DNA of 64,000 nt from positions 6,394 to 70,393 of the forward strand of contig JAKANP010000002.1 in assembly GCA_021812345.1 (NCBI GenBank). Direction: 5' to 3'. This document shows positions 1,362 through 43,865 of the stretch, piece by piece. The stretch is from a bacterium (GTDB lineage: Bacteria > Patescibacteriota > Minisyncoccia > UBA6257 > JAGOQP01). The notes below the pieces were generated by a model. It saw only the letters and a program-made list of their open reading frames with translations. It was not told the origin of the DNA and searched no databases. The stretch's first letter is position 1, and every line of letters starts with the position of its first letter. The position numbers were made by a program, and so were the translations under genes.

Positions 1362-2687
1362 TTATAAAGAAAGAATCCCCCTAAACTCCTTGTCGGACTT
1401 ATACGGACCGACAATGGCGAAATTTAAGTTTTTATTTTGAAGTATCTGTCTTGCTAAACGAGCCAAATCGGATTTTGTTACCGATTTTATCTTTTGGACA
1501 ACCTGATCCGGGGAAAGAATCTTTTCCGATAGGACTAATTGCTCTCCAAAATAAAAAGCCAGATCGCTTGAAGTCTCCAGAGAAAGCATAAAATTACCTA
1601 TATTATGCTCTTTAGCTCTTGAAATCTCGTCGTCCGTTACTCCGTCTAAAGCGACTTTTTTTAATTCTTGGATAATTGCTTTGGCCGCCTCTTGAAATTT
1701 TTTGTGATTTACTCCGGCAAAAATTTCCAGATATCCGTGAGTAGCATAAAGGCTTGAGGAAGCGCCTACGTAGTAAGCCGCCCCTAATTCTTCTCTGATT
1801 TTTTGAAATAATCGGGAACTCATTCCTCCGCCGATAATATCCGATAAAATCGCCAGAGAAAATCTCCTTTCATCAAAAATTGAAAAAGCCTTAAACGCCA
1901 GGGCAAAATGAGTCTGATCGAGTTCTTTGAATTTAAACGTCGTTGCCGGTTTATTTTGTTTGTTTGAAACGGGATGACTTTTTATTTTTGAACCGACGGT
2001 GATATTGGAAAAATATTTTACGGCCAATTTTTTCGCTTCCGGAACGGAAATATGGCCGGCAAACACCACAAACGTTTTTTGAGCAATATAATGTTTTTTT
2101 CTGTAATCAAAAAAATCGGCTTTGTCCATTTTTAGAATGTTTTCCTTGGGGCCCGCAACATCCCAACCTGCCGGCTGATCTCCATACATAACCTTTTCCA
2201 ATATTTGAGAAACTTTGGCTCTCGGTTGATCTTCATACATATTAATTTCCTCTATTATCACTCCTTTTTCTTTTTTTATTTCCTCCTCCTTGAATAAAGG
2301 ATTAAGATACATATCCGAAATCAAATCGGTTATTTGTTCGGCATGATCGAAAGAAACTTTTCCATAATAACCGGTTAAATCTCTTGAGGTAAAAGCATTA
2401 TACGAGGCTCCCAAATTTTCAAACTCGGAGGAAATCAAAAAAGGACTCGGTCTTTTAGGAGTACCTTTAAAACACATATGCTCCAAAAAATGAGAAATTC
2501 CGTTATTATTTTTTGATTCATAAGCGGAGCCGGCTTGAACCAAAACAGCCACGGTAACCGACGCGCTCTCTCTCATCGGGACAACTACTACAGAAAGTCC
2601 ATTTTTTAATTTAAATCTATTAGGATTCATAATTGATAATAATAAGCCAAAAAAATAAAAAATCAAAAAATTATTTGTTCTCTTCAA
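1362..2687 (-). CDS. M16 family (pitrilysin/insulinase-like) zinc peptidase
   Basis: Inverted zinc-binding motif HxxEH in HFLEHMCFKGT near the N-terminus, followed by the conserved downstream glutamate region. 441 aa is typical for M16B. Confidence 0.75.
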   Translation of the reverse strand: MKRTNNFLIFYFFGLLLSIMNPNRFKLKNGLSVVVVPMRESASVTVAVLVQAGSAYESKNNNGISHFLEHMCFKGTPKRPSPFLISSEFENLGASYNAFTSRDLTGYYGKVSFDHAEQITDLISDMYLNPLFKEEEIKKEKGVIIEEINMYEDQPRAKVSQILEKVMYGDQPAGWDVAGPKENILKMDKADFFDYRKKHYIAQKTFVVFAGHISVPEAKKLAVKYFSNITVGSKIKSHPVSNKQNKPATTFKFKELDQTHFALAFKAFSIFDERRFSLAILSDIIGGGMSSRLFQKIREELGAAYYVGASSSLYATHGYLEIFAGVNHKKFQEAAKAIIQELKKVALDGVTDDEISRAKEHNIGNFMLSLETSSDLAFYFGEQLVLSEKILSPDQVVQKIKSVTKSDLARLARQILQNKNLNFAIVGPYKSDKEFRGILSL

Positions 2688-3903: not shown

Positions 3904-4466
3904 CTTTTGGCAAAAATTTTTAACGCCGACTTTATTTTTTCTTCAGCGGTTTTAGCGGACGACGGAACCAAAGATAAGACATCATCAACTTGTTTTTTGG
4001 AGTATCCCAGGGAACGAAGCGCGTCTTTAGTTTCCGATAAAACCGATTCATTCTTAGTGTCATAAATTACCCCTTCTTTTTCCAATTTATCCTTCATCTC
4101 CAATATCATTTTTGAAGCCGTTTTAAAACTTATGCCGGCATCTTTTAATGTTTTGATATCTTCCCTCACAATTGCCGATTTTAAAGTTCTTAAATCCAAA
4201 GAATTCATTATTTTAAGAGCAATCTTGGGACCGATTCCGGAAACAGAATTAAGCATTTCAAACAAAACTTTTTGAGAATTTTTAGAGAATCCAAAAAGTT
4301 CAAATTGCTCGGGATATAAAACACAAAGAAGTTTCACCTTCTTTCCCAAAGAGAGTTCCGAAATTAAGTCGTTTAATACCAGAATTTTGAACCCGATACC
4401 GGCCGTTTCCAAGACGATAAAGTTCTGGCCCTTAACTTCAATTTTTCCGGTGATTGAATAAATCAT
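3900..4466 (-). CDS. ruvA: Holliday junction branch migration protein RuvA
   Basis: MIYSITGKI...FGF N-terminal OB-fold signature, helix-hairpin-helix GIGPKIALKI, and a C-terminal RuvB-interaction domain. 188 aa. Confidence 0.8.
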   Translation of the reverse strand: MIYSITGKIEVKGQNFIVLETAGIGFKILVLNDLISELSLGKKVKLLCVLYPEQFELFGFSKNSQKVLFEMLNSVSGIGPKIALKIMNSLDLRTLKSAIVREDIKTLKDAGISFKTASKMILEMKDKLEKEGVIYDTKNESVLSETKDALRSLGYSKKQVDDVLSLVPSSAKTAEEKIKSALKIFAKR

Positions 4467-9208: not shown

Positions 9209-10222
9209 TTACCATTGAGCATGAATATGCGCTCCCGATTTTCTTTGATTGCCGTTAAAAACCGAACTGCAGTCATCATAAAATGTTCCGCTTATTTCAC
9301 ATTTTGCAAAAGAAGCCCCATTTTGAGTTAATGTCTTAACAAACGAATTCCAAACATTGGGATCATTGGAAGACGTAACAACAATGTCCATCGCTCTGCC
9401 TTGATAATGATATGAATTGGTAGCGTGTTTTCCTCCGGTTAAACTCGTAACCATAAATGGCGTGGGAGTGGGGCTTACACAGCCTGTAGATTGCGGAGCC
9501 AATCCAGTTCCAAGATCTACGGTCCCTTGAGAATAAGGACCGCAAACCAAGCTATCTAAAGTTTCCAGCATATTTATGCTCAAATTAACATTGCCGCTGG
9601 TTCCGCCCCTGGAACAGCTGCAGCTCGGGCTACAAACGAAAGGCATAACGCCATTACTAACATCATTAATAATTGACGAGGCATCGGTGCCGGCCGAACA
9701 ATCGGCGCTTTTTGAAAAAGCTACCTCTCCCGGACTTTTTGACAGAATACTTGAAGCTATTTGAGATAAGGTGCTTCTTTGTTCCTGGGTTCCCCCCGGT
9801 TCTCCCGCTCCGCCACTAGTTGGCATTGCGGGAACAGATTGAGATGTGAAGTTTAAACTCACCAGTTGAGGATTTATGGTATTTAAAACAAGATATGAAC
9901 CGGCTAGCAATAAAAGTCCCCAGATGGCATTGGTTACTCTATCTTTGGCGTCTCCTAAGGCAGATTCATTTCCTCCGCTGGCAAGATATTTTATACCGCC
10001 ATAAATAATCATAATAATCGCCAGAGTGCCGGAAATTCCTATGGCATAGTCGTAAAGTCCGGATATAAAAGATGGGATTGAAGAACTGGAATTTAAAAAT
10101 GCAGGATAATCAACATTCACGGCAGTATTAGCAGATTGTGCGGCAAATATCGGCAATGATGAAACAAATTTCAACCCGAAGACAATTCCAAATAAAATTA
10201 AACTGTTATATTTTTTTCTCAT
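9209..10222 (-). CDS. T4SS pilin-like (VirB2/TrbC-type) domain fused to a LAS-family (peptidase M15/VanY-like) cell-wall peptidase domain
   Basis: N-terminus has a signal peptide, a hydrophobic helix, IYGGIKYLASGGNESALGDAKDRVTNAIWGLLLLAGSYLV (the same motif as the six pilin paralogs at 34-36 kb), then a second helix. The C-terminus has SYHYQGRAMDIV (H-x6-D) and HIHAQW (H-x-H), the zinc ligands of LAS/M15 D,D-peptidases. A Cys-rich linker CSPSCSCS joins the two. Confidence 0.5.
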   Translation of the reverse strand: MRKKYNSLILFGIVFGLKFVSSLPIFAAQSANTAVNVDYPAFLNSSSSIPSFISGLYDYAIGISGTLAIIMIIYGGIKYLASGGNESALGDAKDRVTNAIWGLLLLAGSYLVLNTINPQLVSLNFTSQSVPAMPTSGGAGEPGGTQEQRSTLSQIASSILSKSPGEVAFSKSADCSAGTDASSIINDVSNGVMPFVCSPSCSCSRGGTSGNVNLSINMLETLDSLVCGPYSQGTVDLGTGLAPQSTGCVSPTPTPFMVTSLTGGKHATNSYHYQGRAMDIVVTSSNDPNVWNSFVKTLTQNGASFAKCEISGTFYDDCSSVFNGNQRKSGAHIHAQW

Positions 10223-11562: not shown

Positions 11563-13320
11563 TTAAACCAGACTTTCTTCTTCTCCCAAAAGTTGCTGGG
11601 GTTTAGTAGTAACAATTTTATCTTCAAAATAAGAGGCAACAACTTGAATGGCAACGTGTTTTAACCCCGCGAAAAACAACCCCTGGCCGACACCGGCTTC
11701 AAGCAGTAAATTTTTCTCGGCTTCGGTCAAATTAAACGCTTTAGCAATATTATCTATACTGGTTGGAGATTGTTTTAATAAAAGCTGTAAAGACGAGTTG
11801 GTGACTATCGGTTTTCCATACGGCGAATTCAAAAAGTCATCCACTTCTTGAGTTATAGTTGTAATTCCTAAATAATATTTTCTTCCTCTTTTTGCCAAAG
11901 AAAACAAGAACGAAGCTCCTTCGGGATATTTCATAATCACCCACGCCTCATCAATGACCAAAATTCTTCTTTCCATTTGAGATTTAACGACATTCCAAAT
12001 GAAATTTAAAACAACATACATAGCCACAGGTCTTAATTCTTCCTCTAAATCTCTCATTGAAAAGACAACTAGGCGGTTATTGATATCTATATTGGTTTTT
12101 TGATTAATAAATCCGGCATAGGTCCCTTGAGTATATTTATAAAGACGCTCGGCCATACCTCTTCCTCCTTCCATATTTCTCAAAACTGTTTCAAGGTCGG
12201 ACAATGTCGGTGGCTCAAGATTCAAAAAATTAGGATTACTCGGAACAATATCTCTTGAAGCATAGGTCTCGGTTAGGGCTCTATCCAAAATACCTTCCTC
12301 TTCAACGGTCATATCTCCAAGCATTATTTTTAATAATCCGGTAAGCGTTAAAATGTTTGATTTAAAAACATCGGCCGGGTCTTCTCCTTTGGGAACAATG
12401 GGAATATCAAAAGGATTAACGTGCTGGTCGGAAGTGAGTGAAATTTTAAAATATGTTCCACCGACGGTATCACAAAGATTTTTATATTCATTTTCGGGGT
12501 CAATAACCATCACTTTTGTGCCCATCATCATGGATCTTAGAATTTCAAGCTTGGTGGCGTAAGATTTTCCGGAACCTGATTTTGCAAAAACCACTTGGTG
12601 AGCGTTTTCCAAAGAAAATCTGTCAAAAATTATCAAAGAATTGTTATGCAAATTAATACCGTATAAAATTCCATCCTCGGACGTAAGATCCATGGAAACA
12701 AACGGGAAAAAAGAAGAAATCGGTCCGGAATTCATCGGCGTTCGCACTGCTAATTTATCCTCCCCAATAGGTAGAACCGACTCAAATCCTTCAATTTGTT
12801 GGAAGATGGCCGGTTTTATATAAATAATTTTACTCTCAAAAAGATTGGTGATGACTTCTTCAAGCTCATTTAATTTTTCCAAAGTGTCTCCATAAATGGT
12901 TATATAAACAGCGGAATCAAACAGACGCTCTTGCGCTTGCTGAAGCTTGTCTCGCAAAGCTTCAATATCGGAAAAGGCGGTTTCCAGCATCGGGTCACGG
13001 ACAAAACCTTTCGATTCTTTTTCGGATATTTCGGCTTCGATTTGAGCCGCTTTTTTTCTTAAATTTCTTAGAGCCAAGGCGGTGTCTATCGGATGAGCAA
13101 AAATGGAAATATCAAAAAGTTTTGCCAGATTAATTATCGGAGAAAACCATCCGCTAGAAAGGAATCTTGGGTAAGAAAAAACAAACAACGTCTTGGCAAA
13201 TTTATCGCCTATTTTTATATAATTTTGGTCAACCTCCAAAGCCGCCGGAGAAATTAAATTTTTGACTTCGGATTCTTCCTGCCCCGTGTATGGTTTTATA
13301 ACTTTTATTTCTTCACTCAT
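11563..13320 (-). CDS. virB4: VirB4/TrbE/CagE-family type IV secretion ATPase
   Basis: Walker A FAKSGSGKSYATK and Walker B RILVIDEAWVIM, with conserved VirB4 C-terminal blocks. Start set at MSEEIKVIKP (ATG at 13318-13320), which avoids overlap with the upstream ORF. Confidence 0.8.
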   Translation of the reverse strand: MSEEIKVIKPYTGQEESEVKNLISPAALEVDQNYIKIGDKFAKTLFVFSYPRFLSSGWFSPIINLAKLFDISIFAHPIDTALALRNLRKKAAQIEAEISEKESKGFVRDPMLETAFSDIEALRDKLQQAQERLFDSAVYITIYGDTLEKLNELEEVITNLFESKIIYIKPAIFQQIEGFESVLPIGEDKLAVRTPMNSGPISSFFPFVSMDLTSEDGILYGINLHNNSLIIFDRFSLENAHQVVFAKSGSGKSYATKLEILRSMMMGTKVMVIDPENEYKNLCDTVGGTYFKISLTSDQHVNPFDIPIVPKGEDPADVFKSNILTLTGLLKIMLGDMTVEEEGILDRALTETYASRDIVPSNPNFLNLEPPTLSDLETVLRNMEGGRGMAERLYKYTQGTYAGFINQKTNIDINNRLVVFSMRDLEEELRPVAMYVVLNFIWNVVKSQMERRILVIDEAWVIMKYPEGASFLFSLAKRGRKYYLGITTITQEVDDFLNSPYGKPIVTNSSLQLLLKQSPTSIDNIAKAFNLTEAEKNLLLEAGVGQGLFFAGLKHVAIQVVASYFEDKIVTTKPQQLLGEEESLV

Positions 13321-13333
13321 ATATATATTAAAA

Positions 13334-14020
13334 TTAATTTGCCGGCTGACTTTCTGTCCCGGGCTCTTTGGCCAGCTGTTGTTTGATAGAAGAGGGATTG
13401 TATAAATTATAATAAAGTTCGGTAAGTTCCTGGTCATTTAAAACAACCGCTCTTAAACCGATTCTTTCTATTCCCGATGCGACCTGATCTATCCTCTGCC
13501 TTAATTGAATCAATTGCTGTTCGTATGATTCCTGCTTGTCTTTTTTGCTGTTTTTGGGTTTTCCAAATAATCCGGTAATACTGCTTGTTATTTTTTTGGC
13601 GCCGGCGCTTTCATAAGGAACGACAACAAAAAAAGTTTTGGTCATTATCTCGTTTTCCTTAACAAACCCTTTGATGTATTCAATGTATTCGTCTATTTGA
13701 TTTCTTAGCAACTCGCTCTCTTCCTGCTGTCTTCTTTGGGCCATTTTAGCAAGATAATTGTCTATATTTATTTTTCTGGAATGAATAACTATCTGCACCG
13801 AAAAATCAACGGAATTTAAAAATTCCTGATAATTGGCGGTAATAATGTTTTGCTCCTCTTCGGATTTCAATTCAAAATTTATCCCCGAAACCATAATCAC
13901 CGACCTTAGAGCTCCGCTTTTTAATTTAACAACGCCGTCTTTTATCTCTTCTATATCAACAAATTGCTGAGTTGAATTGGGAGCGATTTGAGTGGTTGTT
14001 TTTTGTTTTTCTTCGGCCAT
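13334..14020 (-). CDS. VirB4 N-terminal-domain-like protein encoded as a separate ORF (possible split VirB4)
   Basis: The sequence ...VKLKSGALRSVIMVSGINFELKSEEEQNIITANYQEFLNSVDFSVQIVIHSRK... resembles the N-terminal substrate/membrane-proximal region that precedes the ATPase domain in full-length VirB4/TraC-type proteins. It ends 13 nt before the ATPase gene, and the ATPase ORF at 586 aa is short for a VirB4. Confidence 0.45.
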   Translation of the reverse strand: MAEEKQKTTTQIAPNSTQQFVDIEEIKDGVVKLKSGALRSVIMVSGINFELKSEEEQNIITANYQEFLNSVDFSVQIVIHSRKINIDNYLAKMAQRRQQEESELLRNQIDEYIEYIKGFVKENEIMTKTFFVVVPYESAGAKKITSSITGLFGKPKNSKKDKQESYEQQLIQLRQRIDQVASGIERIGLRAVVLNDQELTELYYNLYNPSSIKQQLAKEPGTESQPAN

Positions 14021-14068: not shown

Positions 14069-14605
14069 CTAACGATAATCGATTCTTCGCGCCACTTCTT
14101 TTTCTCCACTCATTCTTCTAAATACCTGATACTGTTCCTTGATTTCCGAGATTGGCTTTTTGGGAACCACCTTTTCTCTTTTGGGAATCGGATTTTTTGT
14201 CGTTGTCATGTCTTGCCACAATTTTGAAATTTGAGAAATTCCGGAAGATGCCAAGTCCAAAGCGCTTCTTTTGGATTCCACCGTTTGTGATTTAACTTGA
14301 GGAATTTCAAAAGTTTCTTTTATTACCGGCCTTTTCCACAAGAACATTTTAGGTTGCCAAAAAAACTTGGCCGCTAAAAACGCAAGCATATAAAGAGGGC
14401 GCCCATTGATTTTGATGAAAGCAAAAGAAATACCGAAAGACATCAAAACTATAAAAATAAGCACCCAAATTGCCGTATTTAAAATAAAAAACAGAAAAAA
14501 AGAAACCAAAGCCGGGGCCGCGATAAAACCAAATTGCTTCAGCGTAAGCGGACCGACTATTTTCGATTCAATATCAATAAATTGCGGAACTTCAAATTGC
14601 GCCAT
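14069..14605 (-). CDS. PrgI/VirB3-like small membrane protein
   Basis: MAQFEVPQFIDIESKIVGPLTLKQFGFIAAPALV followed by two TM helices, the PrgI-family layout. It sits directly upstream of the VirB4 genes, as VirB3/PrgI does in T4SS operons. Confidence 0.5.
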   Translation of the reverse strand: MAQFEVPQFIDIESKIVGPLTLKQFGFIAAPALVSFFLFFILNTAIWVLIFIVLMSFGISFAFIKINGRPLYMLAFLAAKFFWQPKMFLWKRPVIKETFEIPQVKSQTVESKRSALDLASSGISQISKLWQDMTTTKNPIPKREKVVPKKPISEIKEQYQVFRRMSGEKEVARRIDYR

Positions 14606-32730: not shown

Positions 32731-33645
32731 ATGAATGAAGTTGAAAAATATATAAAAGAATATCTTGATTATCTGGAGGTGGAAAAGAATCGCTCGCCTA
32801 AGACGATCGAGAATTATCGACGCTATTTAAATTTTTTTGTTAAAATCTCCGGCGCTAAAAATCTCAAAGATGTCAATTTTGAAAATATTCGCAGATTTCG
32901 CCTCGATTTGGCAAGAAGAGCCGGAGAAGAGAGCGAATTTCTTAAAAAAAATACACAAAGTTATTACGTGATAGCCATAAGAAATTTTTTGAAATATCTG
33001 ATAAAAAATTCCATAAAAACTTCCGTTTCCCCGGAACAAATAGAACTTCCTAAAGTTTCTCAAAGACAGATTGAAATTATGGAATATTCCGACCTGGAAA
33101 GATTTCTAAACAGTCCGTCGGGAGATTCTTTAAGGAGTTTAAGAGATAAAGCGATTTTAGAAACCCTCTTTTCCACCGGGCTTCGTATTTCGGAACTTTG
33201 TTCTTTATCAAGGTATCAGGATTTTGACAGAGGCGAGGTAACCGTTCGAGGCAAGGGAGGAAAATTGAGAGTGGTGTTTTTTTCCGATGATGCAAAAAAG
33301 GCGATAAAAAAATATCTTGATAAAAGAAGCGATGCGGAAGAGGCGCTTTTTGTGAGTTTGAATAAATCAAAAAATCCAAAAGTTATAGGGAAAATAATTC
33401 CTCGCGCCATTCAACGGCTGGTAAGGTATTATGCCAAAAAATCAGGCACATTGGACAAAGTCACGCCTCATCAATTAAGACACCAATTTGCCACCGATCT
33501 TTTGATGAATGGAGCCGATATTCGTTCGGTTCAAGCTCTGCTTGGGCACGCGAACATTGCCACCACTCAAATATACACGCACGTTACCAATAAAGAACTC
33601 AAAGAAATTCATAAAACTTTCCACGGGAAAAGAAGAAGCGATTGA
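32731..33645 (+). CDS. Tyrosine site-specific recombinase (XerC/XerD-like)
   Basis: N-terminal SAM-like core-binding domain (YLDYLEVEKNRSPKTIENYRRYLNFF). The C-terminal catalytic block HQLRHQFATDLLMNGADIRSVQALLGHANIATTQIYTHV has the R..HxxR..Y signature. Confidence 0.8.
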   Translation: MNEVEKYIKEYLDYLEVEKNRSPKTIENYRRYLNFFVKISGAKNLKDVNFENIRRFRLDLARRAGEESEFLKKNTQSYYVIAIRNFLKYLIKNSIKTSVSPEQIELPKVSQRQIEIMEYSDLERFLNSPSGDSLRSLRDKAILETLFSTGLRISELCSLSRYQDFDRGEVTVRGKGGKLRVVFFSDDAKKAIKKYLDKRSDAEEALFVSLNKSKNPKVIGKIIPRAIQRLVRYYAKKSGTLDKVTPHQLRHQFATDLLMNGADIRSVQALLGHANIATTQIYTHVTNKELKEIHKTFHGKRRSD

Positions 33646-33684
33646 TTTTTATTGTTCTAAAAAGTATTATTCATCAGTAATAAA

Positions 33685-33769
33685 GCCGAGGTGGCGAAAT
33701 TGGCTATACGCACTAGCTTTAGGAGCTAGCGCTCGAAAGAGCATGCGGGTTCGACTCCCGCCCTCGGCA
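33685..33769 (+). tRNA. tRNA-Leu (anticodon TAG), type II with long variable arm
   Basis: Acceptor GCCGAGG/CCTCGGC pairs perfectly, a D-arm is present, the anticodon stem-loop CTAGC-TTTAGGA-GCTAG gives anticodon TAG, a long variable arm precedes the T-arm GGGTTCGACTCCCGC, and the discriminator is A. No encoded CCA. Confidence 0.85.
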
Positions 33770-33945
33770 CTGAAATGTTTTGATGAATATTTTGACGAGA
33801 GCAAGCAAATTTATTTGCTTGCGTGGCGGAGTCGAAAGTACGAAGCGATATTCCGACAGCAGTCGGAATCGCGAGGAGCGGCCCGCGAGCCGGCCGAATG
33901 ACTGATGAGGCCGGACTTGTGGGAGACTCCCGCCCTCGGCACAAT

Positions 33946-33976
33946 TAAAAACCCCGCCTTAAAAAGCGGGGTTTTT
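33946..33976. terminator. Bidirectional intrinsic terminator
   Basis: AAAAACCCCGCcttaaaaaGCGGGGTTTTT lies between the tRNA-Leu region (+) and the end of the pilin array (-). Confidence 0.6.
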
Positions 33977-33996
33977 AATAAACAAAATTTATTTTT

Positions 33997-34362
33997 TTAC
34001 TGAGTAAGTCCGGAAGACAATGAGTTTTGAACCAAAGTAACCACTCCATAAGAAAGCAGAGCAACTACTATACCGACGATGGCATAGATTAGTTCTTGTT
34101 TGGCTTTTTTGGTTGTTTCACTATCTCCCTTGCTGGTGATAAAGTGAAAAGCTGCCAAAAGAATAAAAAGAACCGCGACAATAAAGATTATGTAATAGAA
34201 CCATTTAACAACAGTAACTAATATCCCAACCCAACCAGATATAGTTCCCGGACCTGTTACTGGACCCAATACCGGCGGAGTTGTAGGTTGAGCAAAAACA
34301 GATACTCCCACAACAAAGAGCAAAATTACCAATCCAATTGACGCAAATATTTTTTTAACCAT
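33997..34362 (-). CDS. T4SS pilin-like protein (VirB2/TrbC-type), paralog 6 of 6
   Basis: From the internal Met (ATG at 34360-34362) there is a signal peptide MVKKIFASIGLVILLFVVGVSVFA, then a hydrophobic helix, AAFHFITSKGDSETTKKAKQELIYAIVGIVVAL, and a second helix. It shares this pattern with the five upstream paralogs. Confidence 0.6.
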   Translation of the reverse strand: MVKKIFASIGLVILLFVVGVSVFAQPTTPPVLGPVTGPGTISGWVGILVTVVKWFYYIIFIVAVLFILLAAFHFITSKGDSETTKKAKQELIYAIVGIVVALLSYGVVTLVQNSLSSGLTQ

Positions 34363-34433
34363 GATTTTTTTATCGTTTACGACCTTTACTTTTGATATAT
34401 TTAATAATAACACAAGTCCAAAATAACTTCAAA

Positions 34434-34829
34434 TTAATTAGCTCCCCTGCTTTGCAAAAACTGGGTTATTAATAACGAGACACCGGTAGAAATAAGAGCA
34501 ACAACTATGGCAATAACAGCATATTTAAGTTGAGCTTTAGCTTCCGCGGCTTTTTTTTCATTGGCTCCGCCTTGAAGAAAGTTATATGCCGCCAAAAGAA
34601 TAAACAAAACAGCAACTACAAAAAATATAATGTAAATCCATCTAACTATGCTGAGTAAGATATACCAAATCTGTGTCACGCCGGTCACAGGAGAAGCAAT
34701 TTGGCTATTTCCAAAAGGATTAACATATCCTTCGTTCACTACGGCAAAAACTTCAAAAATTCCGGTGGTTAAAAATATGGTTATAAATAAAAAAGGTAAA
34801 ATTTTTAATAATGTTTTTTGTTTAAACAT
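34434..34829 (-). CDS. T4SS pilin-like protein (VirB2/TrbC-type), paralog 5
   Basis: Signal peptide, helix, AAYNFLQGGANEKKAAEAKAQLKYAVIAIVVALIS, then a second helix. Confidence 0.65.
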   Translation of the reverse strand: MFKQKTLLKILPFLFITIFLTTGIFEVFAVVNEGYVNPFGNSQIASPVTGVTQIWYILLSIVRWIYIIFFVVAVLFILLAAYNFLQGGANEKKAAEAKAQLKYAVIAIVVALISTGVSLLITQFLQSRGAN

Positions 34830-34845
34830 AAATTTAAATTATTTT

Positions 34846-35214
34846 TTAATAAACTCCTCCACTGCCGATGAATTGGGAAATAATAGCCGATAAACCGGTA
34901 GCAATTAAGGCGACAACTATGGAAATTCCGGCATATTTAAGTTGGTTTTTGGCAACTTCTATTTTCTTTTCATTGGTTCCTCCTTGGATAAAATTATAAG
35001 CCGCCATCAAAATGAATATTACCGCCACCACAAAAAACGCGCGATAAATCCAAATAACAATACTTTTAACGATGGTAAATATATCGTCTGCGCTATTTAC
35101 CGGGGACGCCGTATCGCCGGTATTAAATGGAGCTATATTAACGCTTGCTCCGTAAGCAAACATCGGAGCCAAGGAATAGATAGCCGCCAAAATTAAAAAA
35201 AACTTCTTTCTCAT
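34846..35214 (-). CDS. T4SS pilin-like protein (VirB2/TrbC-type), paralog 4
   Basis: Signal peptide, helix, AAYNFIQGGTNEKKIEVAKNQLKYAGISIVVALIA, then a second helix. Confidence 0.65.
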   Translation of the reverse strand: MRKKFFLILAAIYSLAPMFAYGASVNIAPFNTGDTASPVNSADDIFTIVKSIVIWIYRAFFVVAVIFILMAAYNFIQGGTNEKKIEVAKNQLKYAGISIVVALIATGLSAIISQFIGSGGVY

Positions 35215-35228
35215 ATTTTTAATATTAA

Positions 35229-35546
35229 TTATTTATTTCCCAAAAACGTATTTATTATCGTGGCAACCCCTGAAGCGGTCAAGGCAATAACCAGAGCGAT
35301 AACTGCATATTTAAGCTGAGCTTTGGCGGTTTCTATTTTTTTAGGATTATCTCCTCCTTGAAGATAGTTAAACGCCGCTAAAAGAATGAATCCGACGACG
35401 ACAATATAGAAAGCTTCATACATATAAGTAACGGCTTTTTGCATAAGAGCGATAATATCATCGGCTGTTTGAATCGCGGCAAACGCCACCAATGGAAACC
35501 CGGAAATAATTGCCGCCGCTATAATTGCTTTTGTTTTGTTTTTCAT
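35229..35546 (-). CDS. T4SS pilin-like protein (VirB2/TrbC-type), paralog 3
   Basis: Start at the internal MKNKTKAIIAAAI, which removes the overlap with the upstream gene. Signal peptide, helix, AAFNYLQGGDNPKKIETAKAQLKYAVIALVIAL. Confidence 0.6.
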   Translation of the reverse strand: MKNKTKAIIAAAIISGFPLVAFAAIQTADDIIALMQKAVTYMYEAFYIVVVGFILLAAFNYLQGGDNPKKIETAKAQLKYAVIALVIALTASGVATIINTFLGNK

Positions 35547-35562
35547 ATTTAAATATTTTAAT

Positions 35563-35907
35563 TTATGCCCCAATAAAATTTTTGACTACCGCCGCTATGC
35601 CCTTTGCCGCAAGAACTACCGCCATTCCAATGATTGTGTAAGTAATTGTTTTTTTGCCTTGGGCAAATTTATTTTCATTTCCGGCGGCGCCAAGCATTTG
35701 AAAAGCTCCGATCAACAGCATTATAACAAAAACAGGCGCGGCAAGCTCAACAATAAAAGTGGCGATTTTATCAATCAAATCCGGTATGGTGTTAACTCCG
35801 GATTGAGCTAACGGATTTTGTAAAGCAACTCCTCCGGTATCAGCGGCGCTCACAACCGTTGGCACCCCTAAAATAACGGCAATCGATGAATAAAGAAATT
35901 TTTTCAT
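35563..35907 (-). CDS. T4SS pilin-like protein (VirB2/TrbC-type), divergent paralog 2
   Basis: Signal peptide MKKFLYSSIAVILGVPTVVSA, a helix, GAFQMLGAAGNENKFAQGKKTITYTIIGMAVVLAA, and a second helix. Same architecture as the others with a more diverged motif. Confidence 0.55.
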   Translation of the reverse strand: MKKFLYSSIAVILGVPTVVSAADTGGVALQNPLAQSGVNTIPDLIDKIATFIVELAAPVFVIMLLIGAFQMLGAAGNENKFAQGKKTITYTIIGMAVVLAAKGIAAVVKNFIGA

Positions 35908-35931
35908 ATTATATTTATTATAAACATTATA

Positions 35932-36312
35932 CTATTGTGTCGGCAAATTTAAAAACTTCAAAATAGTGTTAACTAAAAGCCAAGCGCCGAAAGTCAAAAC
36001 TATGCCGATTGCCGCCGCAGTTATTTTTTTCTTTCCGCTTTTAAATTTTCCCTCATCACCGGCGGAAATTGCCATTTCAATTCCTCCCCAGATAATAACA
36101 ATTACCGCCACCGGCGTGACAACATCAGTTAAAGCAAAGGTAACTAAACCTTGAACCATTTTTACAAAATCGGAATAATTGCAAGGATTTTGTCCGTTTC
36201 CTCCGCAATTTACCAAAGCGGCAAAAGATGATGCGGCGTTTATAAAAAACGCCATCAAAAAGAATAAAATTCCATAACCGTATTTCTCGTATTTTCCTGT
36301 TTTATTCAACAT
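35932..36312 (-). CDS. T4SS pilin-like protein (VirB2/TrbC-type), divergent paralog 1 (first in array)
   Basis: Signal/TM region, a Cys-containing segment NCGGNGQNPCNY, a helix, IWGGIEMAISAGDEGKFKSGKKKITAAAIGIVLTFGAWLLV. Same two-helix pilin layout. Confidence 0.5.
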   Translation of the reverse strand: MLNKTGKYEKYGYGILFFLMAFFINAASSFAALVNCGGNGQNPCNYSDFVKMVQGLVTFALTDVVTPVAVIVIIWGGIEMAISAGDEGKFKSGKKKITAAAIGIVLTFGAWLLVNTILKFLNLPTQ

Positions 36313-43271: not shown

Positions 43272-43865
43272 ATGGACAATAAGAAAAACAATTTTATCTC
43301 GGAAGAACATTTTCAAGACGGATTTGTGTCTTCCGATTTCAAAAAGAAACCAAAAAGAAAACACTTTTTTATATTTACTTCGATTTTTCTGGGTATTTTG
43401 ATTTTAATCGCCGGAGGATATTATTCTTGGGAAAATTATCTGAGTCCGTCGGCGCGGTATGCTCGCCAGTCGGAGGCAAATTATCAAAAATATCTTGACC
43501 TTCAACAAAAATATGAAGCGGCAATGAAAGCCGACACTTACGGAGGCGCCACTCCGCAAGATACTTTGAATTTATTTATTGAAGCAATCAAAAACGGAAA
43601 TGTTGATTTAGCGTCAAATTATTTTTTGTTAGACGATGATGGGACGAGAAATGCTCTAATCAAACAAAATATACAAAAAATTATCAATGAGAATCAAACA
43701 AATAAATTGCTGAGTATAATCAACAATCTTCAACCATCATCAAGAGACACGGGGTCGCCAGATATTAAAGAATTCGTAACTTTAGACCAAAAAGGCTTTG
43801 TGGATTATTCAATAACTTTAAAACTTAATAAATATTCAAATATATGGAAAATAGAAAATATGTAA
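43272..43865 (+). CDS. Hypothetical membrane-anchored protein, likely co-transcribed with the giant nuclease gene
   Basis: N-terminal TM helix HFFIFTSIFLGILILIAGGYY followed by a globular domain. It overlaps the downstream 1937-aa ORF by 22 nt. Confidence 0.4.
   Translation: MDNKKNNFISEEHFQDGFVSSDFKKKPKRKHFFIFTSIFLGILILIAGGYYSWENYLSPSARYARQSEANYQKYLDLQQKYEAAMKADTYGGATPQDTLNLFIEAIKNGNVDLASNYFLLDDDGTRNALIKQNIQKIINENQTNKLLSIINNLQPSSRDTGSPDIKEFVTLDQKGFVDYSITLKLNKYSNIWKIENM

Follow-up and report, generated by a model that had tools for sequence, protein, structure and literature searches.

The DNA analysed here is a 64-kb stretch of a Patescibacteriota genome, referred to below as the window. Near its middle lies a tRNA-Leu gene with the anticodon TAG (33685–33770, forward strand; ARAGORN; Rfam tRNA RF00005, 56.2 bits), in which the CCA end is not encoded. 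The last 18 nt of this gene, GACTCCCGCCCTCGGCAC (33753–33770), recur on the same strand at 33925–33942, and these are the two exact copies in the 64 kb; the 18-mer has no match in 100 shuffles with three mismatches permitted. The first copy comprises tRNA positions 57–73 and the next C, spanning the 3′ part of the T-loop, the 3′ strand of the T-stem, the 3′ strand of the acceptor stem, and the discriminator. [quoted passage not shown] It lacks the TTC of the T-loop, and upstream of the exact 18-mer the likeness of the two copies can be extended only by means of an indel (GCGGGTTC/GACT in the tRNA, GTGGGA/GACT at the second copy).

A motif scan places a sigma-70-like promoter, TTGATT-17-TATTAT (33642–33670, forward strand), ahead of the tRNA gene, where it overlaps the xer stop codon and would, judging by its sequence, serve the tRNA-Leu unit. 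The stretch TTGATTTTT at the xer stop is kept in the related loci L001, L092, L093, L095, L098 and L101. Downstream of the second repeat copy lies a bidirectional intrinsic terminator (33944–33979) made of an A-run, 17-nt arms (33944–33960 and 33963–33979) and a T-run, which probably closes both the tRNA/insert unit and a convergent pilin gene (ending at 33997). This terminator is orthologous to the one located directly 3′ of the tRNA in L001, a relative that has no insert. The hairpin is absent from the list of a simple terminator scan, in our reading because its T-run was counted as part of the stem. No terminator was found between tRNA-Leu and the second repeat copy in the window.

The gene upstream (32731–33645, forward strand) encodes a Xer-type tyrosine recombinase of 304 amino acids with the Pfam Phage_integrase and SAM-like N domains (231.6 bits against NCBIfam XerA_Arch, for which the cut-off is 220). 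Its open reading frame ends 39 nt 5′ of tRNA-Leu and lies outside the repeats. The gene order is S15–PNPase–NYN–xer, followed by an array of T4SS-pilin genes, an arrangement that marks the genome as Patescibacteria (Paceibacteria/Wolfebacteria-like). Orthologues of this Xer with 50–100% identity occupy the same synteny in dozens of relatives, with the insert present or absent, and tRNA-Leu(TAG) adjoins xer in about half of the relatives, in either orientation and mostly without an insert. Because the same S15–PNPase–NYN–xer–tRNA-Leu synteny exists in insert-free relatives, the recombinase is, as judged by sequence and gene context, a conserved chromosomal Xer of this Patescibacteria clade, a housekeeping enzyme and not the integrase of an element. 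No other integrase and no transposase, RT, TnpB or Cas gene was identified by Pfam in the 64 kb (ORFs of at least 150 amino acids and neighbours of the locus).

An element that exploits the Xer/dif system (IMEX) was considered as well. Over most of the window, the GC skew stays below zero, and there is no switch at 33.7 kb, so that a dif-type site is not supported, and no dif-like site was identified at the locus; the idea of an IMEX was rejected. As a separate observation, the tRNA-Leu genes of the xer–tRNA-Leu locus fall into two allele families and occur in either orientation, and in one case a tRNA-Leu is split by another. From these sequence arrangements, the locus turns out to be an apparent hotspot of tRNA gene replacement.

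Composition and predicted fold of the insert

The two repeat copies are separated by 154 nt of unique sequence without a gene, which makes an insert of 172 nt when the second copy is included (33771–33942). The GC content of the insert is 0.55, as compared to 0.37 for the window. The 172 nt fold with an energy of −78 kcal/mol (z = −7.3 versus shuffles), and the fold of the whole unit has a z of −11.1. These measurements uphold what the original prediction had described at this locus, namely a perfect recurrence of the last 18 nt of tRNA-Leu (18/18 identity), a XerC/D-like recombinase gene ending about 40 bp before the tRNA, an unusually GC-rich insert with strong hairpin potential, and a strong terminator that closes the unit. 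The prediction had also noted the hammerhead core heptamer CUGAUGA in a non-canonical arrangement, and this is how we find it: the heptamer (33902–33908) is located in a hairpin loop, and the insert has no Rfam hammerhead match.

All elements of the insert are described here on the forward strand. It begins with an AT-rich leader (33771–33800) that contains a 12-nt tandem, AATGTTTTGATG/AATATTTTGACG, seen in both the repeat analysis and the fold. The leader ends in CGAG (33796–33799), which is complementary to the CUCG of the repeat, and a single A (33800). It is followed by a hairpin (33801–33822) with 10-nt arms, GCAAGCAAAT and ATTTGCTTGC, that are 100% complementary and have 2 nt between them; the predicted fold renders this element as a 9-bp stem with the loop UUUA. 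Next comes GGCGGAGTCGAA (33825–33836), an inverted copy (9 nt, 100%) of the T-loop and of the 3′ strand of the T-stem of the tRNA, where its counterpart is TTCGACTCC-GCC. The inverted-copy score of the window is 19 and that of tRNAs without inserts ranges from 10 to 20, with one non-insert tRNA at 20, so the significance of the inverted copy is weak when it is taken alone. A further hairpin, GCGATATTCCGAC-AGCA-GTCGGAATCGC (33845–33872), emerges from the fold and from inverted-repeat analysis. The element GCGAGG-A-GCGG (33871–33881) can pair with CCGC-CCUCGGC of the repeat copy, and helix P5, CCCGCGAG/CUUGUGGG (33882–33923), which was derived from the fold and from comparison with the related insert L017, contains two G·U pairs and encloses the hairpin CCGGCC-GAAUGACUGAUGA-GGCCGG together with a bulged A.

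The second repeat copy thus has two alternative sets of partners. In the minimum-energy fold, it pairs with the distal CGAG and GGCGGAGUC, and GGCGGAGTCGAA is its distal partner. In the alternative pairing, its partner is the proximal GCGAGG-A-GCGG, and the last 72 nt of the insert then form a rod, the base of which is like the acceptor/T stack of tRNA-Leu with the discriminator unpaired. This modelled stem, formed by GCGAGG-A-GCGG and CCGC-CCUCGGC, is plausible and would look like the acceptor and T stems of a tRNA when these are stacked on each other. This 3′ domain (33871–33942, 72 nt) folds by itself with −43.3 kcal/mol and a z of −6.0. The proximal duplex of the window is, by itself, not better than shuffles, and a test of the closing helix, in which the pairing of the 3′ copy with the 5′ part was compared to shuffles, was significant only in the related inserts L007 and L010 and not in the window.

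Related inserts behind other tRNA genes

Orthologous loci were obtained by a recombinase search of genome_contigs and metagenome_contigs. Each of the six assemblies that belong to the species of the window carries the identical insert (6/6, with Xer 100% identical). A comparison of the orthologous tRNA-Leu locus in relatives, as suggested in the original prediction, revealed that the insert is absent from L001, L095 and L101, the Xer proteins of which are 90%, 82% and 80% identical to that of the window, respectively. At these empty sites, the tRNA is followed directly by the orthologous terminator, and the 18-mer is the same or differs by one base (in L101, it is exactly the same). The insert is therefore a discrete unit that was either gained in the lineage of the window or precisely lost elsewhere. 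As an 18-bp repeat with copies 172 bp apart makes precise loss easy, the direction of this change is unsettled.

We then screened the tRNAs of 98 CPR-related loci for a second occurrence of the 3′ end of the respective tRNA in the 420 nt that follow it. The scores form two clean groups (at least 26 versus a background of at most 19), and eight distinct inserts of about 130–210 bp, or ten loci with near-duplicate contigs, are located behind a tRNA gene on the same strand. We sorted them into types A, B and C, which are labels coined in this analysis. Type A consists of the window (172 bp) and L017 (146 bp, with a degenerate second copy), both behind tRNA-Leu(TAG). Type B includes L007 (191 bp), L043–45 (156 bp) and L098 (211 bp, with 6 nt splitting the second copy), all behind tRNA-Leu(TAG), as well as L010 (132 bp), which follows tRNA-Ile(TAT). 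Type C is represented by L006 (179 bp) and L011/L064 (180 bp), again behind tRNA-Leu(TAG).

In each of the six distinct inserts with perfect repeats, the repeat copies the local tRNA, even though the tRNA sequences differ. In all of them, the repeat starts at tRNA position 57, the base next to T54-T55-C56, and its final base is either the discriminator or the base that follows it. An inverted copy of the T-loop region is found inside several inserts (14 nt in L007, 9 nt in the window, and also in L043 and L098), whereas L006 and L011 have at most a weak one. A terminator-like hairpin stands between the tRNA and the structured part in L006, L011, L043 and L098, which disfavours simple co-transcription at these four loci.

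A module related to type B is also present in L022/L072, where it is situated between tRNA-Val(GAC) and tRNA-Met without a duplicated end and runs directly into the complete tRNA-Met. In L014, the same tRNA-Val/tRNA-Met pair is separated by an 11-nt spacer. The module thus exists independently of att-type duplication. A search with nhmmer linked the L010 insert to the L022/L072 module and revealed no homology of the window insert (type A) with types B or C.

Compensatory changes and strand bias

Compensatory pairs were counted by hand. RNAalifold, when applied to the four type B sequences, returned a model of 5 base pairs only because the hairpins were misaligned by MAFFT, and this model was not used. 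In the first type B hairpin (H1), a 9-bp helix closed by CGG/CCG, all nine pairs are kept in four species, and six of the nine change on both sides. The second hairpin (H2), which carries GNRA loops, has compensatory changes in three of its eight pairs and one mismatch. The motif UGUAGRAAA is conserved between the two hairpins. For type A, which has two members only, one of them (L017) degenerate, a single comparison is available, a sample too small for statistics: the window and L017 share the helix CGCGAG/CUUGUG with the same two G·U pairs, the bulged A and the enclosed hairpin, and two of the eight outer and two of the five inner pairs of P5 change on both sides, none being disrupted. Over H1, H2 and P5, these counts include one mismatch in all.

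Many loops of the inserts conform to GNRA (GAGA, GGAA, GGGA, GAAA, GCAA). In five of the eight inserts, the predicted fold of the tRNA strand is more stable than that of the complement by about 10 kcal/mol and contains more G·U pairs; in the window, there are six G·U pairs on the tRNA strand versus one on the complement. The strand-biased folding and the excess of G·U pairs point to an RNA that is read in the same direction as the tRNA. Taken at the level of sequence, the compensatory changes, the GNRA loops and the strand bias argue for RNA and against a decaying scar.

Searches for known families and for a mobile parent

A cmscan of the window with all 4227 Rfam families at E values up to 10 detected only the tRNA and low-scoring noise that overlaps the terminator. 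Specifically, hammerhead, twister, pistol, hatchet, HDV, tmRNA and Y-RNA-like families had no match in the window at this threshold, and no hammerhead, other ribozyme, tmRNA or Y-RNA-like match was obtained for the inserts of seven relatives at E values up to 0.5. The sole Rfam tmRNA match (10.5 bits) falls on the T-arm of tRNA-Leu itself, and ARAGORN found no second tRNA or tmRNA. Neither omega-RNA nor IS605 families of Rfam matched above noise. A hammerhead was rejected since there is no Rfam match and CUGAUGA sits in a hairpin loop without GAAA and the three-helix context; furthermore, the heptamer is absent from the L017 insert.

Exact-motif scans of viral_contigs returned nothing or chance matches in coding regions (L099), and in a scan that gave 67 loci, none had the helix or a tRNA. 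The insert had no blastn match among phages and plasmids, and no autonomous ICE, IME or prophage parent was found in the viral_contigs, phage and plasmid collections. We therefore set aside a viral, phage or plasmid origin, as no relative was found in these collections. Neither Rfam 15 nor the literature searched yielded a description of gene-less inserts of comparable length that follow tRNA genes and have a conserved structure. The repeat signature as such is classical; the set of structured gene-less inserts in Paceibacteria-like CPR bacteria, patchily distributed as it is, appears to be undescribed.

Discussion

Combining these observations, we tentatively favour a model in which the insert is a small-RNA cassette that is co-transcribed with tRNA-Leu, carries a mimic of the tRNA 3′ end at its own end, and is prone to gain and loss. 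Transcription would start from the promoter at 33642–33670 and proceed through the tRNA and the 172-nt cassette to the terminator at 33944–33979. The 3′ processing of the tRNA would then free the cassette RNA, the last 18 nt of which correspond to tRNA positions 57–74. These nucleotides would pair with 33871–33881 or with 33796–33836 to create a stem like the acceptor/T stack of a tRNA, which could act as a tRNA-like tag at the 3′ end, by which the RNA is processed, protected or recognised by tRNA enzymes. The 18-bp repeat would allow the cassette to be lost precisely by slippage or gained by recombination, and this would explain the empty sites in close relatives. Besides the conservation of the fold, the predicted promoter before the tRNA and the terminator after the second copy count in favour of an RNA cassette.

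The sharp pattern of presence and absence, the fixed boundary in the T-loop and the fact that type B follows tRNA-Leu as well as tRNA-Ile accord with site-specific insertion no less than with a plain RNA gene, or even better. The main competing account, which we consider somewhat unlikely, is that of a miniature gene-less integrative element, similar to a CIME, that resides at the T-loop/3′ end of tRNA-Leu and is moved by a tyrosine recombinase acting in trans. In this case, attL and attR would correspond to the two 18-mers, and the arms of attP to the structured interior. A variant of this account supposes a folded single-strand substrate that imitates the target duplex by means of its inverted and direct copies of the tRNA end, in the manner of CTX-phage attP or integron attC. 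After excision or circularisation, the junction would read GGGA-GACTCCCGCCCTCGGCAC-TGAAATG, i.e. CTTGTGGGA-GACTCCCGCCCTCGGCAC-TGAAATG. Integration into tRNA genes classically shows itself as a direct repeat that spans the stretch between the T-loop and the 3′ end (PMC4383910), and the same core at the empty sites of relatives, the local repeat made by type B at each of its two kinds of tRNA, the start of every perfect repeat at position 57, the inverted T-loop copies in L007, the window, L098 and L043, and a locus that is prone to recombination, with its two allele families, both orientations and split tRNA-Leu, are all in line with it. The original prediction had read the locus in this way, as an att signature beside an integrase. 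Of this, the duplicated tRNA 3′ end holds, in that it bounds a discrete insert for which empty sites exist; the integrase does not, as the insert contains none and the adjacent recombinase is a conserved housekeeping Xer, which is encoded beyond the repeats and is also found where the site is empty. The distal att site of a larger island, which a further copy of the 18-mer would have marked, did not materialise within the 64 kb even with three mismatches allowed, and no autonomous parent or homologue turned up in the viral, phage and plasmid collections. Furthermore, the second copy has no TTC, so attL and attR share no symmetric core comprising the full T-loop, the GNRA loops, G·U pairs and strand-biased folding suit RNA and not duplex DNA, the L022 module has no repeats, and a circle of 172 bp would be a poor substrate for recombination. 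The RNA-cassette and integrative-element accounts are not exclusive, and the insert could be a mobile RNA gene.

The remaining explanations carry less weight. That the insert is a neutral scar without present function, left by a larger prophage or island that has decayed or by a partial tandem duplication of the tRNA, is improbable. Fragments of tRNA 3′ ends are common debris of integration (PMC4383910), the second copies of L017 and L098 are degenerate, and the closest relatives have no insert; against this, the repeat of the window is perfect (18/18), its interior folds with a z of −7.3, the insert is fixed in 6/6 assemblies of the species, and inserts of similar size and layout exist in several species, with compensatory changes among them. 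The decayed remnant proposed originally thus becomes unlikely, because analogous inserts elsewhere keep their architecture and exhibit compensatory base changes. A guide-type RNA, in which a scaffold is followed by an 18-nt 3′ guide (tRNA positions 57–74) that would, like TnpB omega-RNA, CAST homing crRNA or IS110 bridge RNA, lead the system to the tRNA gene, with the T-loop TTC in the role of a PAM/TAM-like motif, would account for the order of scaffold and target-identical 3′ end, for the start of all perfect repeats right after TTC, and for the location of the insert at the PAM-distal end of the target. We regard it as very improbable, given the lack of TnpB, Cas12, IS110-type and Tn7-type genes in the 64 kb (ORFs of at least 150 amino acids and locus neighbours), the lack of Rfam omega-RNA or IS605 matches above noise, the L022 module that has no such guide, and a target that stays intact after insertion, which would imply self-targeting. 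We give the least credence to a self-cleaving ribozyme, hammerhead or other, or a second tRNA- or tmRNA-like gene. The heptamer at 33902–33908, the tRNA-like 3′ end and the strong structure are suggestive of one; Rfam, which had been proposed as a source of a family assignment for the insert, yielded no ribozyme or tmRNA match at E values up to 10 and nothing beyond the tRNA and terminator noise, ARAGORN found tRNA-Leu only, and the heptamer has neither the helical context of a hammerhead nor a counterpart in L017.

Returning to the RNA cassette, a more far-reaching form of this proposal, which we offer as a rather unlikely speculation, is that such cassettes are mobile, that they copy the 3′ end of any tRNA gene behind which they have landed, and that the copy provides a top-half tag by which they are handled like tRNAs. 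If true, this would involve a T-loop-specific insertion mechanism new to bacteria (target-primed, RNA-guided or through a folded single strand) and the addition of CCA to the cassette RNA, perhaps even its charging.

Duplications of tRNA 3′ ends are routinely read as footprints of viruses or islands, and here they bound a conserved, gene-less, structured unit of 130–210 bp that is found repeatedly behind tRNA genes of several CPR lineages. If this unit is an RNA gene, it would represent a class of tRNA-tagged small RNAs in the minimal genomes of CPR bacteria, the ncRNA repertoire of which is almost unknown. Should it be a mobile element instead, it would rank with the smallest known insertions of the site-specific kind and would point to an as yet unrecognised tRNA-targeting recombination activity in CPR bacteria. 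In either case, the locus cautions that adjacency alone is insufficient to infer an integrase plus att site.

Comparison with known systems

Folded single-strand recombination sites comprise integron attC and the CTX-phage attP(+) that is used by XerCD. As in these sites, the inverted and direct copies of the target in the insert could fold into a target-like stem, and a gene of the Xer family is adjacent. The differences are that the locus has no GC-skew switch, no integron integrase signature and no cassette array, and that some inserts have only a faint inverted copy or none.

Genomic islands and prophages are placed in tRNA genes by tyrosine integrases; such tDNA islands measure kilobases and encode their integrase beside the tRNA (PMC4383910). 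In common with Islander-type tDNA islands, the insert has a tRNA 3′ end on one side and an identical, displaced fragment of it on the other, the block of identity reaches from the T-loop to the end of the tRNA, and relatives have empty sites. Unlike these islands, the interior in the window measures 154 bp, contains no genes and has a conserved structure, and the sole recombinase is a Xer encoded outside the repeats. CIMEs are cis-mobilizable elements that derive from ICEs or IMEs by decay, having kept attL and attR and lost the genes for integration and transfer; they are kilobase-sized, and their parent ICE or IME is recognisable (PMC5704250). The insert resembles them in being gene-less, flanked by att-like repeats and located at the 3′ end of a tRNA gene, but no parent was found in the viral, phage and plasmid collections, and its size and structure have been kept in different species, which decay would not bring about.

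Tags and top-half mimics that imitate the 3′ part of a tRNA are known from the tRNA-like domain of tmRNA, from viral tRNA-like structures and from YrlA, a bacterial Y RNA-like molecule (PMC4201824). The predicted cassette RNA likewise ends in a stem like the acceptor/T-arm with the cognate discriminator. It differs from these in that it neither forms a cloverleaf nor encodes CCA, has no T-loop for lack of TTC, and matches neither the tmRNA nor the YrlA models, and its mimic is an exact copy of the neighbouring tRNA instead of an independent conserved domain.

The spacers and trailers of tRNA operons also release small RNAs, examples of which are the 3′ external transcribed spacers of E. coli and the t-elements of plant mitochondria. 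These RNAs are short and poorly structured and have no duplicated tRNA end, features in which the cassette differs from them. Akin to them, it lies in a tRNA transcription unit with ends that are probably set by tRNA or tRNA-like processing signals, and the L022 module, for its part, occupies the space between two tRNAs.

Transcription architecture and sequence repeats of the inserts

The insert in the window carries close to its start a 12-nt tandem repeat, AATGTTTTGATG / AATATTTTGACG (33774-33797), which contains the element TGATGAATA. This element is an exact inverted repeat of TATTCATCA (33668-33676), a sequence that overlaps the −10 box of the predicted promoter of tRNA-Leu.

At four of the loci from related CPR bacteria (L006, L011, L043 and L098), a strong terminator-like hairpin is found directly 3′ of the tRNA, before the structured part, whereas the inserts of the window and of locus L010 have none in that position. 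The insert types may therefore differ in their transcription architecture.

Distribution of inserts and modules among tRNA genes

In a small, tRNA-Leu-biased sample of loci, structured inserts or modules were observed only behind tRNA-Leu, tRNA-Ile and tRNA-Val, the tRNAs of the branched-chain amino acids, and none was found behind the approximately 25 Arg, Met, Gly, Pro, Ser, Ala or Lys tRNAs surveyed in that same sample. The tRNA-Val case is a module of about 70 nt with two GNRA-capped hairpins (4124-4192, minus strand, in both L022 and L072), which forms the spacer separating tRNA-Val(GAC) from tRNA-Met; nhmmer relates this module to the type B inserts at E = 2e-4. The same tRNA pair is present at L014, where the spacer is only 11 nt long.

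Gene content around the insert

The insert locus of the window is directly followed by a tandem array of small T4SS_pilin/TrbC-like genes, six paralogues in all (33997-36312, minus strand). A T4SS-like cluster is located at 9–20 kb, and its members include a 337-aa pilin-domain protein (9209-10222), a TraG/VirB4-like ATPase (11563-13437) and a PrgI-like protein (14069-14605). The plus-strand gene at 43844-49657 encodes a protein of 1937 aa in which a staphylococcal-nuclease domain is combined with lamin-tail domains; this protein is probably a secreted or surface nuclease.

Unusual tRNA loci and tRNA gene replacement

Downstream of tRNA-Ile(TAT) at L033 (about 1600-1810, minus strand) is a tRNA-like sequence with the anticodon loop CTTATAT, a normal T-arm and a CCA end, which carries an extra segment of ~65 nt in its D-arm region and is not called by ARAGORN. 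At L020 (860-1256), an ORF for a GIY-YIG nuclease (Pfam E = 4.5e-13) is flanked by a variant partial tRNA-Met and a complete tRNA-Met, after which comes a further variant copy. Its position among tRNA-Met copies suggests homing-endonuclease activity at the tRNA genes of these bacteria.

At L047 (3487-3712), a complete tRNA-Leu(TAG), distinct from the resident tRNA-Leu, interrupts the resident gene in its anticodon-arm region, and the same arrangement is present at L093 and L094. After the 5′ fragment of the old gene comes an inverted copy of that fragment (GATGCG TCC CGCATC), and the 3′ fragment is placed after the new tRNA-Leu(TAG). The split gene resembles the tRNA-Leu of L042/L092, and the Xer recombinases of this group are 82–83% identical to that of the window. 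The arrangement is a tRNA gene replaced via insertion into itself. Across the loci compared (L001-L102), the xer-adjacent tRNA-Leu(TAG) belongs to two quite different sequence families and occurs in either orientation among genomes whose Xer proteins are 80–90% identical. The xer–tRNA-Leu locus looks like a hotspot for tRNA gene replacement and inversion.
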